From positions 11,664,561 through 11,728,560 of the forward strand of contig JAUZTB010000082.1 in NCBI GenBank assembly GCA_034780895.1: a DNA stretch of 64,000 nucleotides, written 5' to 3'. This stretch comes from Rhynchobatus australiae. Taxonomy: Eukaryota. A program made the position numbers and the translations under genes. Position 1 is the first letter of the stretch, and the number at the start of each line of letters is the position of its first letter. Shown here one piece after another: positions 5,581-60,530 of this stretch. The notes under the pieces were generated by a model. That model did not search any database, was not told where the DNA came from, and worked only from the letters and a program-made list of their open reading frames with translations.

Positions 5581-5739
5581 GAATGAAGAAGACTACGATT
5601 TCCCTTATGATGATGAGCCCACACCATCACCACAGGCCTATGGAGGAACGCCCAACCCACAGACTCCAGGCTACACAGATGTTCCATCTCCACAGGTTAA
5701 TCCCCAATACAACCCTCAAACCCCTGGAACACCAGCAAT
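5581..5739 (+). CDS. SUPT5H: SUPT5H coding exon (CTR2 start)
   Basis: ctcacag|...|gtaagt. [52 protein letters not shown](M). Confidence 0.96.
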
Positions 5740-6120
5740 GTAAGTACCTGCAAATCCCTTCACTGAATAATTAATTATAGCACTGGTCCTTTTATTCTCT
5801 AAAGATGGAACATTTTTTCTGTTTCCATCCCCTTTGTCTGTAGTTGCCACTAGGAAGATGAAAATCTATGCAGAAATAGACAAGGGAGTGCTTAGAATTT
5901 GAGGCAGAGAAACAGGCTACTAGTCCATGGCAGTATTATTTTCCACTTGAATCTCCTCCCTCTATTCCTTCCTGGCCAATTTTATTTAGCAAGCACCTTT
6001 TCGAGGGGCTGGTGATGGTAGAGGGGATGTAATTTTGGCATATGTTCAGCTGGCTTGGCACTGATCACTACTTGTAAGAAAAGTTTGTTCACTTAATGAG
6101 ACCTATTNNNNNNNNNNNTA

Positions 6121-6321
<201 letters not shown>

Positions 6322-6449
6322 TGAATACTTTGCGCATGTATTAATCCAGAATTGTTTTGACCCTGTTGGGTTAGCTTAACAGTACAGCAGTTGGGATTCT
6401 GTAATAGGTTTGGTCAGGACTTGGATATCAACAGAGATAATTGAATATG

Positions 6450-7200
6450 AAAGAACATAAATAAGAGCAGGAGGAGGCCATTTGGCCCTTTTGAGCCTGG
6501 TCTACCATTCATTAAGATCATGGCTGATCTTCTGCCAGCATTCTCCAGCCATGAATTCAACTGCTCTATCCTCCTATTTCTACTTATTTGCACATGGCAC
6601 TGGGAATAATCTTGACATTGCTACCTTTGGAGCTCCTGCTTTTTTTCTGCTTCCTAGCTCCTTGTCCTTTTTTCTGTCTGTGTGGTCAGTACCAATATGG
6701 ACCATGACCTCTGGCTGTTCACCTTCCCCCTTCAGAATGTTGTATAGCAGTGGCATCTTCAGCCCGGGCACCATGGACGCAATGTAACAACTCCATGTCC
6801 AGTCACATGCTATTTTATCCCTCTCCCCACTGTATCTGCCACCGCCATTGCTCCTTCACTCTTCTTCCTCGCCTCCTCTGCAGTTGAGCCACTTGCGATG
6901 CAGTCACAGCCAGGAGCGTGGCAGTTATCTGAGCAACAAACCCCACCAATGGTATTTAAAGGGGAAAATCTGTCCGGGAGTGAGGGCTCCCACCTGCTCT
7001 TCCTCTGTTCAACAGTCAGCTGCACCTTCTCTGCCTGCCTGTGCTTAAGCTGCACAGTGTCCACCGCCCTACATGTGTTATCCACAAAGTCCTTGGCTTC
7101 AAAGATACATCACAGTGACTCCAGCTGCTGCTACATCTGGAGATACTTCCTACATATGTGGCTGGAAGCATCCCTGACCTTGTATGGTGTAGGATGTCAT
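6450..7200 (-). mobile_element. CR1-type LINE remnants including ORF1 (esterase-like) fragments
   Basis: Minus-strand ILKGEGEQPEVMVHIGTD, SLPDRFSPLNT and AVADTVGRGI are typical of CR1 ORF1; a CR1 3' tail lies at about 6450-6540. Confidence 0.7.
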
Positions 7201-7289
7201 GTGATTTTTCCAAGGTAAATGACCAGATCATCTGTTCTTTCGTGGGCTTGACTGATGGATAAATGTTGGCTTGGCACTGAAATGATATG

Positions 7290-7726
7290 TTGTCACAGCC
7301 CAGGGCATCACGGACACCAGCCTCCCCTTCTTGGACTCTGTCTATACCTCTCGTTGTCTTGGTGTAGCAGCTGGCATAATCAAAGACCCTACCCACCCGG
7401 GACATTCTCTCTTCTCTCTTCTTCTATCAAGTAGAAGATACAGGAGCCTGAGAGCACATACCACCAGACAAAGACAGCTTTCCCCACTGTAGTAAGACTA
7501 TTGAACAGTTCTCCTATTCAATGAGATGGGCTATGACCTCACGATCTACCTTATTGTGACCTTGCACCTTATTGCACTGCACTTTCTTTGTAGCTCTGAC
7601 ACTTTACTCTACTGTTATTGTTTTTACCTGTACTACATCAACACATTCTGTACTAGCTCAATGTAATGAATTTGACCTGTAAGATCGGTTTAAGACGAGC
7701 TTTTCACTCCCTCGGTACAAGTGACA
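7290..7726 (+). mobile_element. Rex1/Babar-like LINE 3' end
   Basis: IIKDPTHPGHSLFSLLLSSRRYRSLRAHTTR C-terminal motif plus 3'UTR. Related copies at 18508-18615 (-) and 60970-61410 (+). Confidence 0.65.
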
Positions 7727-8428
7727 NNNNNNNNNNNNNNNNNNNNNNNNNNNNNNNNNNNNNNNNNNNNNNNNNNNNNNNNNNNNNNNNNNNNNNNNNN
7801 NNNNNNNNNNNNNNNNNNNNNNNNNNNNNNNNNNNNNNNNNNNNNNNNNNNNNNNNNNNNNNNNNNNNNNNNNNNNTACCCTTTCCTGTTGGAGGCCCTT
7901 TCCAGCATCTTCAGTTTTTCAATTTTCATTTGAGTTCTGAGGGATCCTATGGATCCATCTGAGAATATTAGAATAGTAGAAACTAGGAGCAAGAGTGGGC
8001 CACCAAGCCCCTCAGTCCTGCCCTGCCACTCGGTATGTTCACAGCTGATCTATACTGGCCTCAACTCCTCCAATAGACTCAATTCTCTGACCTTCCAAAA
8101 ATTGTCCTACCTCCACCTTACAAACGTCTAATGATTTCTGCAACGAGTTTAAAGACACAAAGGAAAGGCTCCAGAATTGTGTTGTCCATTCATCCCTGTG
8201 ATGTGACAGAACTCAGTACTTCCTGTACCTACTTGACTTTAAGTTGGATGAGGTTGATTTTGAAGGTAATTTTGTTTTGATGGGGGGACGGACTGCTGCT
8301 TGATGGAGGTAAATGACTGTTTTGAGGATGATAGGAAATAACTTTCTCTTTAAGGAACGTGAACAGTGCTGGATTTTTTTTTCTCCTTGTATTTTCCTGG
8401 CCCACTCACAGCGTGTTTTGTGTTTCAG

Positions 8429-8632
8429 GCAAGTCCAAGTCCAAGCCCTGTCGGATATAGTCCCATGACACCTGGAGCCCCATCTCCTGGCGCATACAAT
8501 CCCCATACACCAGGTTCCAGCATTGATCAGGGGTCCAACGACTGGGTAACGACGGACATAATGGTCAAAGTCCGGGACACGTACCTGGACGCGCAGGTTG
8601 TGGGACAGGCGGGAGTCATCCGCAGTGTGTCG
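8429..8632 (+). CDS. SUPT5H: SUPT5H coding exon (end of CTR2, start of C-terminal KOW region)
   Basis: tgtttcag|...|gtacgt. [68 protein letters not shown]. Confidence 0.96.
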
Positions 8633-9127
8633 GTACGTAGTATTGCTGTGTTGTTGTTGTCATAGTCATACAGCACAAGAACGGGCTGTTTGGCCCACTG
8701 TATCCATGCGGGCTCAGAACCCATTTATACTAATCCCATTTGGCCTGTGGCCTTCTATGCCCTGGCAGTTCAAGTGTTCTTCCAGATACCACTTCGATGT
8801 TGTGAGTGTACCTACTTCCATCACCTTCTCAGGCAGTGTGTTCAGACTGCAACCACCCTCTGGGTGAAATTTTTTTTCCTCAAAACCCCTATAACCCTCA
8901 AATCTATTCTGGTTTTAGATGTCTCTATTATCAATGTTCTCAGTTTCCACCCTATCTAAGCCCCTCACAATGTTGTATACTTCTGTCAGGCTCCCTTTAG
9001 TCTCCTTCATGCGAAGGAAAGCAAACCTGGGCTATCCAGTCTCTCCTCATTACTGAAAGATTCCAATAGCTTGATAGATCTCCTCTGTACCCTCACCATG
9101 TCCCAGTGCATCAAGCACCCATTTACA

Positions 9128-9456
9128 CTGGCAGTTCAAGTGTTCTTCCAGATACCACTTCGATGTTGTGAGTGTACCCCTATAACACATTCTGTACTAG
9201 CTCAATGTAATGAATTTGACCTGTAAGATCAGTTTAAGACGAGCTTTTCACTCCCTCGGTACAAGTGACAATAATAAACCAATACCAATCTGTAGAAAGA
9301 GAAACAGTTACCCTTTCCTGTTGGAGGCCCTTTCCAGCATCTTCAGTTTTTCAATTTTCATTTGAGTTTGATAATAGAGACATCTAAAACCAGAATAGAT
9401 TTAAGAGGGTTATAGGGGTTCTGAGGAAAAAAAATTTCACCCAGAGGGTGGTTGCA
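9128..9456. repeat. Mosaic insertion built from four locally copied segments
   Basis: 9128-9178 = 8762-8812; 9176-9186 = 8885-8895; 9184-9368 = 7640-7936 (source interrupted by an N gap); 9368-9456 = reverse complement of 8848-8934. Confidence 0.9.
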
Positions 9457-9715
9457 TCTTATTCCCCCCACATTGCCATCAACTCTGCTCCCCACCACCC
9501 AAGATTCCATCACCCAACAGGAACATTTTAATGGCCAATCAACCTATCAATCTGCAGATCTTTGGGATATGGGAGGAAGCTGAAGGAACTGGGGAAACCC
9601 ATGTGGTCACAGGGAGAACATGCAAACTCCACGCGGACAGCACCCCAGGTCAGGATTGCATTGTTCCCAGGCTACTGGAGATGTGGGGCAGTAGCTCTAC
9701 TAGCTGTGCCACTCC
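9457..9715 (-). mobile_element. tRNA-derived V-SINE (HE1-like)
   Basis: Reverse strand carries the V-SINE core ggagtttgcatgttctccctgtgaccacatgggtttccc...cttcctcccata. Similar copies at about 20985-21130 (-), 39700-39790 (+), 51960-52145 (-) and 59402-59730 (+). Confidence 0.7.
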
Positions 9716-10855
9716 AGCTACAAGACTGTGCTGCCCTATCCTGTTGTCTCGGATAGGGTTTAATAACATCTCCCACATTCCAAAGACGTACAGGTCGGTT
9801 AACATGGGTTTAAAATGGGCAGCGCGGACTTANNNNNNNNNNNNNNNNNNNNNNNNNNNNNNNNNNNNNNNNNNNNNNNNNNNNNNNNNNNNNNNNNNNN
9901 NNNNNNNNNNNNNNNNNNNNNNNNNNNNNNNNCAGAAGGGCCTGTTACCACACTGTAAATAAAATTTAAAAAATTTAAACTTGTATTAAATTAAATTTTA
10001 AATTTAACAACGACTTGATGGACAGGTTGAAGTCTGAATATCTGGGTCTAAAGTGTATAATCAACCATAAACAAAAGAAGCAGCATAAAGAGGCTCTGCA
10101 GTCAATTGCCATTAATCCTCAGCTGTAAAGTTAATAGAGCAATCTTGGAACAGCCTGAGAATAGTTGAGCTGCATACATTCAGTCCTGAGGGGAAACCGG
10201 CTTTCCAGCTGAGGCATGTGGAATTCCCTCTCTCCGAGGTGGTTCAGAGTCAGCCAGAACCCTGTATGCTCATCTTGCCCTTGCTGGTTATATTGGACGA
10301 TCACTCTAATCATTTGTTGAAAAAGTTTTTTTTTGTTGTTTCATTGACAGACTTTGTCACTTGCCTGAAATAAGTGGTATATGTGTTTGCCATCACATCC
10401 CTGGAAGATAAAATACTCATTTACTATTATCTCTGGGGTGAGGAGAGATTTCTAAACCTGCCATACACCAAGTATAAACTAAGATAGTGGGCCTTTTTGC
10501 TTGGCTACTAAAGCTATTAATTTTTTTTTGCTGCTTTACATCATGCTGAGGAAAGCTGAGGGCTGAGAGGCCAGTTAGAGAAACATCGTCTTGGAGGAAA
10601 ATTTTTAATAGAAACTGGCACAAGCAAATGTGTATTTGTTTTCGTCCCCCAGTGTGTTGCGCAGATGTATAAAATTAGACAACAGGTTATTTATACCTCA
10701 GTGGATCCCTCAAAGCACTTGAACTTGTTAATTACCTTGAATGGTATTGATTTGTGCAGGGGAAAGCAGTACTCAGGTGGTGCAGGAGGGCAATGTTCAC
10801 TGCAATGCATTTGCTGAAATGAATGAACAAGTTTGAACATTTCTTTCCCTTGCAG

Positions 10856-10951
10856 GGTGGGCTGTGCTCTGTGTACCTGTCAGCCACTGACAAAGTGGTC
10901 AGCATCTCCAGTGAGCATCTTGAACCAGTCACCCCTGTGAAAAACGATAAG
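10856..10951 (+). CDS. SUPT5H: SUPT5H penultimate coding exon
   Basis: ccttgcag|...|gtaaga. [32 protein letters not shown]. Confidence 0.96.
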
Positions 10952-13156
10952 GTAAGACCCAATTGGTTAGAGCCACGGAATCGTACTGCACACAGGCAGG
11001 CCCTTCAACCCATCACACCCATGCTGACCGTCAAGTTCCTATCTAGACTCATCCCCTTTAGCAGCACTTGTTCCATCTCCTTCTGTACCNNNNNNNNNNN
11101 NNNNNNNNNNNNNNNNNNNNNNNNNNNNNNNNNNNNNNNNNNNNNNNNNNNNNNNNNNNNNNNNNNNNNNNNNNNNNNNNNNNNNNNNNNNNNNNNNNNN
11201 NNNNNNNNNNNNNNNNNNNNNNNNNNNNNNNNNNNNNNNNNNNNNNNNNNNNNNNNNNNNNNNNNNNNNNNNNNNNNNNNNNNNNNNNNNNNNNNNNNNN
11301 NNNNNNNNNNNNNNNNNNNNNNNNNNNNNNNNNNNNNNNNNNNAATACCCAGCTGTCAAAACTTTTTGTTTTAGTTTGGGCATTTATTGTTTATTTTTTT
11401 AAGAAAGGGCAACCTTAATGGATATAATGGAAAGGGCTGGACCGATCAAGGGATGTGGGGAGAAAACAGCATCAGAAAAATTCCCTTTGTTTCACCCATT
11501 ACCCTCTCCCAAACTCTGCTACCTCGACGAACATATTTGCTTCTTTCAATTCCGATGGAAACGTTAAATGTTTCTCTTTCCAGAGGTGCTACCTGTCTTG
11601 CTGAGATTTTTTTTCAGCATTTTCTGTTTTTATTTCAGAATTCCAATACCTGCATTTATTTTATTTTCACAGTTTACTGAAGGGACTAAGTGGCCTACTT
11701 CTGCTATATTTCTTTCTATGTTTCTGTAAAGATCCACAGGGTGATGCTGTGGATCTTTTACTTCTGATTCTTTGCTCAAGTATAGAATGGGGATGAAAGA
11801 CTTCACTACCTCCTTCTTGTAAAGAACATACATTAAAATCCTTTTTGGACTCTTTCTTGGTATAAATCACCATCATAAATGGCCCATAATTTAGTCCCAT
11901 TTGGCATCTGCAGTAGCTGTAGGGAGTGGAATAATGTCACAAGAGATTCTCGAGCTCATCGTAACAGCAGAACTGAGGGAACTTCACTCAGCATCTGATC
12001 GTGTTAAATCATAAGTGGGAGTATGTGAAATTGTGATTTTACTCTTCCTGCCCTGACTTCATAATTTGTCCATAAAAGTTGCAAAAATAAACAATTTAGA
12101 CAGTTATTTTAAGATGGTGACTAGTAAAATAATGCTGTATATAAAAGCAGCCTATTTACTAATAATTCAAAGGATTATAGCTTCAAAAACTCAGCCTTCT
12201 GATTTGAGAAGAAAATATTATGCTTTCTACCGGAGGAAGCCTTGGGGTTTATTTTAAAGAAGAGTTTGTTTGATGTATACTCAGCAGGATGCATTTTAAT
12301 GAGGGCACTGGAGTGGTGGTTGGAAAGTTGTCTTAGAGTTCATCAACTGATGTAACAGAAGTTTTCAGTACATCTAAGCAAGCAGGAAGAAAGCTTTACA
12401 ACAGACCTTTCAATTAAAAATTGTTAAATGTTTGACGATTAGGTATCACTGAACCAGAAAATAATTGAGTAAAGGCACTTGATTAATGAGTTCTGCGTTA
12501 CTTCAATCTAACCCTCAATTCTCTGCAATAAGAAGAGCTTAATGGATGAATTGTCTGTCTGTTGCCACACATTGCTGTGTACTTCAGTTGAGGTGGTATC
12601 AAAGCAGCAAAATGCAAAATAACACCTTGACAGTAAGATTTGGTAACATCTTGTAGAAGAGTTCTACATATATTTACAAATATATCAAAAAGTTACAAAA
12701 TGGAAATTTCACTGAGTCTCTGAAATAAAACCTCATATTTAAATAGCACCCTCCATATTCTTGATGTCCATTGTGTTTTATGTCTTGCACAGTATTTTGT
12801 GTTGTATGTGACTGGCCACGGCTGGGAAAGGAGTAATTGAGGAGGTAATCCATTAATGGTTGCTAGAAATGGATACCAAAAGTTCTCTTTTCTAATCCCG
12901 AGTGTTTAGAACATCACAAAAGAAGCTAGGTAGAAGAATCAGTTGTATATTTGCTCCCTCTGCTAATTCCTGAGGTAATTTGGAATCTTGGCTGAGATAC
13001 CGGCTAAGTTACTGAGATGCCATGTCCACAATGATGGGTGCCCACTAAATGCTGTGGATTGCAACTCTAGGAGACTGTCCACATCAGGGCAGGATTTAGA
13101 GTAAAATTCCGATTGGAACTTGGTGACTGCTTGTATAACCATTTTTCTACCTGTAG

Positions 13157-13339
13157 GTGAAAGTGATTCTCGGTGAAGATCGGGAGGCAACAGGCATGCT
13201 ACTGAGCATTGATGGTGAGGATGGCATTGTCCGTATGGAACTGGATGACCAGCTGAAGATCCTCAACCTGAGATTCCTTGGGATCCTGAATGAAGAAGGA
13301 ACAGGATCATCTGGAAAGGATGTATATAGTCGGAAGTAA
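13157..13339 (+). CDS. SUPT5H: SUPT5H terminal coding exon (last KOW domain)
   Basis: cctgtag|. [60 protein letters not shown], stop TAA at 13337-13339. Confidence 0.96.
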
Positions 13340-17209: not shown

Positions 17210-18041
17210 GCGGCATAACCTCGTTGTAAGTGAAAGTTGTTTACGTTTTTAATAGCGTTCATGAATTTTCAGGCTCGATATTTTGAGTCGAGCTTCGCTC
17301 TTTGGGTTCACATTCCGTTTGTCCCTCCTCACTTGCTGTCCTGACCTTTGGTAGGATCGCGTCGAAATCAACNNNNNNNNNNNNNNNNNNNNNNNNNNNN
17401 NNNNNNNNNNNNNNNNNNNNNNNNNNNNNNNNNNNNNNNNNNNNNNNNNNNNNNNNNNNNNNNNNNNNNNNNAGGATCGCGTCGAAATCAACCTAACCTG
17501 TTGGCTCTCAGTCTGCTCCTATTTTTGCCCTGATTGGAGGCGCAGTACCAGCGGCTGTTAGTATCCCTGCGTTCCATTGGCGGAGTGCGACGTCAATAAA
17601 AAGCGAATGGCGGTTAGATTGACGAAGGGTGGGAGGTGGGCGGGACCGTTGTTCATGATGGCGGCATCACTCAGCTGCATGTGTCGCCGGTCGGTGCGGC
17701 ATCTCTGCGGGAAAATCCTGCGGGACCGGCCCGGCACCGCCCGCAAAAAATCCGCGCTGCAAAATTATGAGGTAAAGGCCCACTCGAGGCCGGCGTGTCG
17801 GCCGCTGTCGACGGAGAAAGGCGTCGGGCCGGGGACCGGCGGTCTGGCTCAGGCCATCCTGCAGGAGAAGCTGCAGCAGCAGCGGGAGCGGGGCCAGGAG
17901 GAGGCGGGCGGCGGCAAGCCGGGGGCCGACAGCAGCGGCGATGCCGGCACCGAGCAGGAGCAGAAACAGAAGCAAAACGCGGCCTACGCCAAGAAAATGG
18001 TGCTGAGGCTGGCGGGGCTGCTGGGCGCCGGCAGCGCCCTC
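17210..18041 (+). promoter_or_regulatory. CpG island / TIMM50 promoter and first exon
   Basis: Sharp rise in GC and CpG in an otherwise CpG-poor background. Reverse CCAAT boxes (ATTGG at 17533 and 17576), CRE-like GACGTCA at 17589, GC box GGGCGGG at 17638, YY1-like ATGGCGG at 17607 and 17658. Confidence 0.8.
17655..18041 (+). CDS. TIMM50: TIMM50 first coding exon (mitochondrial import translocase subunit Tim50); 3' end lost in N gap
   Basis: Arg-rich presequence-like N-terminus MMAASLSCMCRRSVRHLCGK..., then GGLAQAILQEKLQQQ and KQNAAYAKKMVLRLAGLLGAG, closely matching fish Tim50 as recalled. It follows SUPT5H as in human. Confidence 0.92.
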
Positions 18042-31720: not shown

Positions 31721-32148
31721 TGTAGCGACCCATACTCACACGTGTTGAACCGTCATCGGCGGATGTGGACGGACGCGCGGGGATGCGTTACATTCAGCCC
31801 GCGGGGCAGGCTTTCCAACAGGAACCTGACACCACGTCCGCTGAAAGGGCCCTCGGGTATTTTTGCGCACGCATGCCTTTTGTTTGAGTCAGTANNNNNN
31901 NNNNNNNNNNNNNNNNNNNNNNNNNNNNNNNNNNNNNNNNNNNNNNNNNNNNNNNNNNNNNNNNNNNNNNNNNNNNNNNNNNNNNNNNNNNNNNGGCTTT
32001 CCAACAGGAACCTGACACCACGTCCGCTGACAGGGCCCTCGGGTATTTTTGCGCACGCACGCCTTTTGTTTGAGTCAGTAAAGTGTGTTTCGACTTAGCC
32101 TCCACGTCCACGAGTTTTCCTTGCGGAAACCCGTCGCATATGGCTACA
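31721..32148 (+). repeat. 5' LTR (about 240 bp real length, inflated by an N gap with duplicated flanks)
   Basis: Starts tgtagcgacc, ends tatggctaca; aligns to 35376-35616. Confidence 0.93.
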
Positions 32149-59309: not shown

Positions 59310-60530
59310 AAACACAAAACAGATCAGGGAGTATCTGTGGAGAAGAGAAACGCTGTTAACATTTCAGATCCAAGATCCTTTATCTGAATTGGAAAAGTGA
59401 ATGGGCAGTACCGTGGCACAACAGTACAGCTGCTGACTCAGAGATCCAGTGACCTGGATTCAATCCTGACTTTTGGTGCTGTCTTTGTGGAGATTACATG
59501 AAATATGTGAATTTCCTACAGGAGCTCTAATTTCCTCCCACATGCCAAAGGCAAGCTTAATTGCCTACTGTAAGTTGCCCTTAATAGGAAGGTGAGTGTA
59601 GTGATAGACTTTGAGGGGACTTCATGGCAATGTGTGGCAAATAAAATGAGATTAGTGTAGGTGAATGTTTGATGGTTGGCATGGGCTTGATGGTTGGCAT
59701 GGACTAAAAGGACTTTCTGTGCTGAGTCTGTGACTCCATTAAATGCAGAGAGGCTGGGGGTGGGGATGGATAGGATAAAGTGAATGTCACTGATAGGATG
59801 AGGCCACAAGCCACATCGCACTCTCGTTCCCACTCTGACCTATCTGTCTATGGTCTCCTACACTGTTCTGACAATGACCACTGTAAGCTTGAGAACCAGC
59901 ACTTTACCTAGTATCTGGGCAAGTTGCATCTTTTGGAACTTGATATAAATTCAACAATTTCAGTGAAGTGTACAAAAATGGGACTCTTCTGCTGCATTTT
60001 ATCTATCAGTTATAGTAACCCATACACAACCTGATCTGCTGGGCAGTTCCAACGTTCTCCTTTTGATTTCAGTTTACCATAATAACTTTGCCTTGTAGTT
60101 CACAGTATTAACATATCCCTTTTGTTTATTTTCTCTTAAACCTCACCTGTTAATCCATCAAACAGATGGCTATGTAAATAATAGGGGGCTATATGGGAGA
60201 GAAGGGTTAGATAGATCTGAGAGCAGGATAAAATGTCGGCTAACATTGTGGGCCGAAGGGTCTGTACTGTGCTGTAATGTTCTGTAACACACCACCATGA
60301 CAACTTTAGCCATGCCCTAGCAGACAGATGCCCTTTGTCCCAGCCATTCATTCCCAACCTCTACCACTTAAAATTAACTCATTTTCTCACTCTCCCAGTT
60401 CCAATGAAGAGTCTTTGACCTGAAACGTTAACTTTTTCTCGTTTGATAGATTTTGTGTGACCTGCTAAAATGTTTACAGCATTTTCTGTTATTTCAAAAT
60501 TTCAGCATGTGCAGTTTTTTGATTTTTCAA
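59310..60530. mobile_element. Penelope-like element remnants with nested V-SINE and CR1 tail
   Basis: About 59825-59960 (+) reads SHSDLSVYGLLHC...KLENQHF.*YLGKLH...LDIN, resembling the C-terminus of the Penelope GIY-YIG endonuclease. Terminal-repeat pieces occur in both orientations. Confidence 0.65.

Follow-up and report, generated by a model that had tools for sequence, protein, structure and literature searches.

Local insertions copied from neighbouring DNA are known from several systems. In the available parts of Pace et al. 2009 (PMC2671141), repair-mediated duplications are reported in zebrafish, chicken and mammals, with 824 proximal cases in human TEs and 80 in zebrafish; two-donor chimeras account for 20 of 1,136, five of them with both donors proximal, and cartilaginous fishes lie outside the surveyed species. 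Complex germline MMB-TI, linked to MMBIR, were described by Osia et al. 2021 (PMC8421209), with 26 complex events in one person, 33 in another and up to five templates, and the authors, as far as the available text goes, consider these events likely distinct from classic TMEJ. A literature search on templated insertions and template switching in shark genomes found no such paper.

We analysed a 64,000-nt stretch of DNA from Rhynchobatus australiae, hereafter the window, in which a preliminary description made from the sequence had mapped positions 9128-9456 as four copied pieces of neighbouring DNA. Greedy parsing of 9090-9500 by exact matches to either strand of the window, together with BLAST, reproduced these coordinates, and the resulting patch of 329 nt is built from local copies of four donors (Table 1). 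The matches of 51, 60, 87 and 89 nt have BLAST E values of 2e-20 to 2e-38, above chance. Within piece 3, the left part (9184-9270) equals 7640-7726 with 1 substitution, at 9231, and the right part (9309-9368) equals 7877-7936 over 60 exact nt. Piece 2 is the weaker assignment: just 5 nt are left unexplained by pieces 1 and 3, an 11-nt cover was reached by 6 of 1024 5-mers within 500 nt, 17 of 1024 within 1500 and 22 of 1024 within 3,000, and the piece matches inverted piece 4 at 9409-9419 equally well.

Table 1. Features of the patch, its donors and its setting, in window coordinates.
Feature	Position	Strand	Remarks
Composite templated insertion	9128..9456	.	329 nt in place of 6-8 nt of host SINE
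Piece 1	9128..9178	+	direct copy of 8762-8812, 51 nt, exact
Piece 2	9176..9186	+	direct copy of 8885-8895, 11 nt, exact
Piece 3	9184..9368	+	direct copy of donor 7640-7936, 185 nt in copy
Piece 4	9368..9456	-	reverse complement of 8848-8934; 1 substitution and one 2-nt indel
Donor of piece 1	8762..8812	+	within old repeat fragment
Donor of piece 4, and of piece 2 (8885-8895)	8848..8934	+	old repeat fragment; apparently derived at 8883 and by 2-nt loss before 8900
Donor of piece 3	7640..7936	+	3' end and tail of high-copy repeat plus unique flank; includes 150 N
SUPT5H (SPT5) coding exon upstream of insertion	8429..8632	+	phmmer E 5.7e-34 to human SPT5 residues 941-1007; AG/GT ends
Next SUPT5H exon, ends approximate	10856..10951	+	motif scan of + frames
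Host V-SINE 5' part (tRNA-like head and V domain), ends approximate	9456..9713	-	V domain matched by eye
Host SINE 3' remainder, far side of insertion, start approximate	9096..9127	-	by-eye paralogue alignment; ortholog contig continuous to 9127

The donors lie 194-1,376 nt from the insertion (taking 38 nt for the N run within one of them), all on its left side, and three were copied directly and one inverted, with the inverted donor 194-280 nt from the insertion site. The repeat content resembles that of a cartilaginous fish, and we take the old repeat fragment at 8848-8934 to be LINE-like. Local donors are 97-100% identical to the pieces, compared to at most 91% elsewhere among the scored genome matches. 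There was no target-site duplication and no poly(A/T) tail at the patch, and no untemplated letters (filler) were present at its three internal joins. A 9-nt identity was also noted between 7934-7942, the end of the third donor with its flank, and 9418-9426, inside piece 4 as it reads in the ancestral state; it lies away from the joins and may be chance.

The extent of the third donor required closer attention. Both ends of 7640-7936, the donor originally proposed, match the copy, but piece 3 is 185 nt long while this span covers 297 positions, 150 of them N (7727-7876; a run also present in G000), and where the donor has N the copy has 38 nt (9271-9308) without a visible donor in the window. 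The first 19 of these letters correspond to the usual tail of the repeat at the end of the donor's left part, with 7/7 paralogues continuing likewise, and 9288-9308 is found directly upstream of 7877 in the orthologous contig of a related organism, organism A, where record position 56 corresponds to 7877 and to 9309. Because of this repeat tail and of the relative's contig, both edges of the 38 nt are taken as donor-derived. The organism A contig aligns to 9288-9368 ungapped with 7 differences, and its first 34 letters have no alignment to the copy. The donor may hold 112 extra letters between its two parts, representing either a fifth jump or a later gain.

The patch was also said to sit in a V-SINE within an intron of SUPT5H, and both the by-eye V-domain match and the SPT5 exon match (Table 1) bear this out. 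The insertion lies deep in the intron, with ~0.5 kb separating it from one flanking exon and ~1.4 kb from the other. Within 5650-13300, a motif scan placed more SUPT5H exons on the + strand near 5654-5750 and 13170-13300. Within the host element, whose tRNA-like head was recognised by eye and whose paralogues are 72-78% identical, the V domain (9530-9627, minus strand) matches by eye the anuran V-SINE consensus in the available supplement of PMC6887750, with the first 23 nt identical. The available part of PMC5499810 contains nothing on the host SINE. Template jumps that cross the coding exon without copying it had been presented as worthy of note; this occurs at chance level, as the exon was missed in 36% of random placements (P 0.36), and we rejected exon avoidance as a signal. 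No acceptor-like motif and no reading frame over 54 codons was found in the patch, which is likely a neutral scar with no sign of function. Further along the intron, an AT-rich imperfect palindrome (9971-10005) occurs within 9945-10010, at a repeat end adjoining an N run.

Seven sequencing runs share words with 7877-9832, and four of them (X7, X1, X2 and X3) were compared as contigs. The contig of organism A, ~92% alike, runs through 8817-9127, continues with 8 letters and resumes from 9456 onward, which corresponds to an empty SINE. This empty ortholog, which had been proposed as a check on the interpretation, was present in 3/3 organism A runs (X1, X2 and X3; 3 samples from 2 studies). The patch thus interrupts a TE whose halves are collinear, since the ortholog joins 9127 to 9456, and the ortholog sizes the target deletion at 6-8 nt; synthesis went back to the original template no more than 6-8 nt from the point at which it had left. 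A loss of a few SINE bases had been deduced from the copy near 59640; the small deletion stands, but that copy proved unusable for measuring it and paralogue spacers vary. Spacers at the insertion point in paralogues were 8, 8, 17, 18, 18 and 20 nt (8 nt in loci L026 and L089), a strict pattern census gave 1 match and a loose one 5 of 19 loci, and sizing the deletion from paralogues was rejected.

Taken together, the patch belongs to a known, ordinary mutation class, and multi-donor germline scars have been described in humans in the available parts of PMC2671141 and PMC8421209. It resembles the repair-mediated duplications of PMC2671141, as presented in the text available, in being an insertion (at least 50 bp) that interrupts a TE and is under 619 bp in size, with donors within 5 kb (their peak is near 1.2 kb) and more than 50 bp away. 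Microhomology, a small deletion (1-15 nt in theirs), the lack of poly(A) and an empty orthologous site are also shared. Unlike those duplications as reported in the main text, the patch has four donors, one of them inverted. With the complex MMB-TI and MMBIR events it shares several switches, at least one inverted, and a return to the original template. As in the available text of PMC8421209, the patch is germline and draws on several templates of mixed orientation (one example there is reverse-forward-forward) without a larger rearrangement. The search rule for MMB-TI in that text required an inverted template within 100 bp, whereas the inverted donor of the patch is 194-280 nt away and its farthest donor ~1.4 kb, and unlike those events the patch is old enough to have diverged.

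We next considered the joins, which overlap by 0-2, 3, 3, 1 and 1 nt from join 1 to join 5. The three internal overlaps proposed earlier (ACC, AAC and T) were recovered, at 3, 3 and 1 nt. A 2-nt overlap at join 1 presupposes that the lost letters started like the family consensus, as the organism A alignment ends at 9127. The summed overlap of 8-10 nt over the 5 joins compares to 3.4 expected (P 0.044-0.010), and becomes P = 0.17 without joins 2 and 3, the two joins that also define the 11-nt piece 2 and on which the excess of microhomology depends.

The patch is best explained as an inherited local templated insertion, probably produced by MMBIR/FoSTeS- or SDSA-like switching and likely in one germline repair event. 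Under this model, a broken or stalled DNA end would prime repeatedly on 1-3 nt of complementarity, copy a neighbouring stretch and release. If the left 3' end was extended, the order would be 1-2-3-4, with pieces 1-3 copied from the bottom strand and piece 4 from the top by fold-back or from a displaced strand; if the right end was extended, the order would be 4-3-2-1, with piece 4 from the bottom strand and pieces 3-2-1 from the top. With either primed end and any division of the pieces between them, both strands of the left flank would have served as template. A resected two-ended break would leave just the top strand on the left flank. As both strands were used and a simple resected two-ended break offers one, an intact duplex was likely used, whether a sister chromatid, a homologue or the unresected arm, entered as a D-loop, or a fork, or else a released fragment. 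We infer both the single event and this strand argument from the arrangement of the pieces. Where germline double-strand-break repair had been proposed, the inherited local multi-piece templated insertion stands, while the two-ended break is presumed rather than shown.

The main alternative is iterative polymerase theta end joining of a two-ended break, in which the right end would copy the left overhang in trans to give pieces 3, 2 and 1, and a hairpin or released fragment would give the inverted piece. Placement of all donors on one side (chance P 0.125) and the small target deletion are in keeping with this scheme. Pol theta TINS, as described in the available text of Carvajal-Garcia et al. 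2020 (PMC7165422), share with the patch direct and inverse flanking copies, short microhomologies and several rounds of synthesis; mixed direct and inverse pieces with joins of at most 3 nt are typical of TINS, several rounds lengthen their insertions, and PMC8421209, in the part available, leaves room for Pol theta in a subset of MMB-TIs. However, in PMC7165422 first-round tracts are rarely >10 bp, insertions are 1-157 bp and donors typically lie within 30 bp, whereas here the tracts measure 51, 185 and 87 nt and the donors are at distances of 194-1,376 nt. Tract lengths and donor distances in the patch go 5 to 40 times beyond the values typical of TINS in that text. The inverted copy of left-side DNA also joins the right flank, and not the left end, which is the one capable of fold-back. 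MMBIR/FoSTeS- or SDSA-like switching is favoured over classic Pol theta because of the long tracts, the donors at up to ~1.4 kb and the use of both strands; Pol theta, previously listed as an equal candidate, does not keep that rank, and we regard it as unlikely. The polymerase is not nameable from sequence.

A less probable scenario, to which we give little weight, is fragment capture, in which pre-made pieces such as resection products, flaps or an unwound synthesised strand would be stitched together by NHEJ or alt-EJ without serial priming. Joins 4 and 5 overlap by 1 nt each and join 1 by 0-2 nt, and mixed orientation comes naturally with free fragments. In the available text of PMC11724301, a yeast hybrid of synthesis followed by NHEJ yields local inverted insertions, and the foldback or captured insertions described there resemble the patch in that an inverted local copy is attached to the opposite end through 0-5 nt of microhomology. 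Those insertions differ from the patch in being 2-150 bp and mostly <14 bp, in their break-adjacent priming and in consisting of a single piece. Arguing against fragment capture, the three internal joins carry no untemplated letters, priming accounts more easily than ligation for an 11-nt piece that overlaps each neighbour by 3 nt, and every donor is still in place.

An RNA-templated origin, through reverse transcription of SUPT5H pre-mRNA with template jumps or through 3' transduction from the repeat that ends near 7746, is improbable enough to be set largely aside. Pieces 1-3 have the sense orientation of the SUPT5H transcript and piece 3 comprises a repeat 3' end with its flank, as such an origin would produce; against it, the insert has no tail, the site shows a deletion and not a target-site duplication, no spliced join is present and piece 4 is antisense. 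Insertions of the resembling class likewise argue against it, as poly(A/T) tracts were reported in 0/39 proximal duplications in the available text of PMC2671141.

An artefact, in which an assembler or an amplification chimera joined nearby sequence, had to be treated as a serious rival because this fragmented assembly duplicates contig ends. There are 573 N runs in the 147 stretches that we surveyed (see below), and N runs border 24 of the 54 local pairs detected outside the window. Inside the window, 31809-31894 and 31995-32080 are 86 nt at 97.7% identity across a 100-N run, likely an unmerged assembly overlap; the same probably applies to 17353-17372 and 17473-17492, 20-nt duplicated contig ends across another 100-N run. 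The patch itself sits within an N-free stretch (7877-9832), and contig-end overlap was rejected as its source, as neither the N run at 7727 nor the one at 9833 has overlapping sides. A composite repeat present at many loci, which had been named as a way for the interpretation to fail, was rejected as well: in a genome search that gave 44 matches (40 scored of 1281 candidates), the composite was found at its own locus only, as the sole match spanning more than one piece, and the other matches among these 44 hit the repeat tail at 81-91%.

Contigs from run X7 cross some of the junctions. Those crossing join 1 (8905-9157), join 4 (9339-9397) and join 5 (9427-9618) have no differing letter, and their depth at these joins is 5.4, 5.4 and 7, compared to 4.7-5.6 in unique flanks; further X7 contigs cover 9266-9368 without differences, and 9368-9456. 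Reads across all five junctions had been suggested as a test, and contigs were found for joins 1, 4 and 5 but joins 2 and 3 were not seen among the X7 contigs listed. Contig 8762-8877 of X7 shows no break at 8812, so that the join-2 branch is missing from the contig graph, and simplification at ~5x could drop it. Join-crossing contigs have 29-30 letters on their short side, just below our 31-letter bridge rule, as would be expected of 31-letter-word contigs that end at a repeat. Against a two-copy expectation at ~5x coverage, the piece 4 contig has a depth of 8.13, and the 9266-9368 contig, at 4.7, is not doubled. There was no sign of an empty allele in X7, whose contigs are unbroken at the outer joins. 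X7 may be the assembly's own source sample, and so gives no independent evidence of fixation.

The differences between copy and donor also bear on an artefact. At position 8883, the copy's letter is found in 13/18 paralogue rows and the donor's in 3, with gaps in 2; at the 2-nt indel, the copy's 2 nt are present in 14/18 paralogue rows and in organism A. Judged by these alignments, the copy in piece 4 appears to keep the ancestral state at both differing sites, and the donor to have changed. Piece 4 is therefore not an assembler copy, as had been argued from small differences between copy and template, and polymerase error in the copy is no explanation either. The copy in turn bears a derived CpG-type change of its own at 9231, where the donor's letter is found in 4/7 paralogues (with the copy as query) and in a loose-end consensus from hundreds of contigs. 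With ancestral letters in the copy that are missing from the assembled donor, an enclosing N-free stretch and three joins in X7 contigs at flank depth on one side, and on the other the contig-end duplicates, two joins unseen among the X7 contigs listed and the possible identity of X7 with the assembly's source, we consider an artefact very improbable.

The two donor-side differences of piece 4 (8883 and 8899-8900) lie 17 nt apart. They could reflect a polymorphic donor haplotype, mutagenic refill or an assembly error. They may postdate the event, or they are perhaps allelic, since none of the X7 contigs listed carries the donor-specific letters at 8899, where the shared contig is the one with a depth of 8.13.

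To estimate when the patch arose, we compared the copy with its donors and the window with organism A. Copy and donors differ by 2 substitutions in 290 nt (0.69%, 95% CI 0.08-2.5%), and the window differs from organism A at 72 of 945 positions (7.6%). Assuming equal rates, the event may date to roughly one tenth of the time since the organism A split (range 1-33%).

To place the patch among other local duplications in this genome, we surveyed 147 stretches, 7 of them slices of the window and 140 from elsewhere (10 of these adjoining it), for local pairs of at least 30 nt at 93% identity or more. The survey covered 1,215,158 non-N bases. The 54 pairs outside the window comprised 24 that flank N runs, 12 young repeats, 3 tandem pairs and 15 untagged pairs at 13 loci, nine of which were inspected (all except L022, L130, L160 and L178). 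One of these, L151:7867-8022 (G000:C98:5007867-5008022), looks from its sequence like a candidate older scar of the same kind as the patch. There, a 23-nt hairpin is followed end to end by 30 nt copied directly from 8254-8283 (93%) and 101 nt copied in inverted orientation from 7684-7784 (96%), and the surrounding 3 kb are free of N. L020:3669-4106 (G000:C82:11772229-11772666), ~44 kb past the window end, contains a collinear copy of 1472-1787 followed by one of 2497-2617 (97-100%), and looks like a candidate two-jump local duplication, with assembly effects possible as both parts touch N runs. An exact 86-nt direct copy at L036 in G000:C64 (3283-3368 and 4137-4222, 768 nt apart, with no adjoining N run) is a candidate simple repair-mediated duplication. 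Of the remaining inspected loci, five abut N runs and L024 resembles two diverged repeats.

Multi-piece candidates thus number 2 in 1.156 Mb, or 1.7 per Mb (CI 0.2-6.2), and 0.9 per Mb if L151 alone is counted. Several independent small duplications built up at one site would fit donor divergence that differs by piece (0, 0, 1 and 2 changes), but these counts are compatible with a single age, the pieces abut with overlaps and none interrupts another, and ~1-2 candidate scars per Mb make repeat hits on one site improbable, which leaves this stepwise reading with next to no weight. Returning to templated insertion in one event, a bolder conjecture, which we consider doubtful, is that this slowly decaying cartilaginous fish genome archives thousands of multi-donor, two-strand template-switch insertions at ~1 per Mb, far above the mammalian multi-donor share. 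Such an archive would suggest that germline repair often proceeds by copying from an intact sister or homologue, and the two donor-side changes would then reflect either another donor haplotype or mutagenic refill during that event.

As a single locus, the patch matters little, being deep intronic with no sign of function. It is nevertheless a clean, polarised teaching example, with an empty ortholog, datable differences and the use of both strands, and a homoplasy-free lineage marker for this species and its close relatives. Wider value would come only through a genome-wide catalogue of such scars in cartilaginous fishes, in which the distance, strand and side of the donors could help to tell MMBIR-like germline repair from the Pol theta-like kind.
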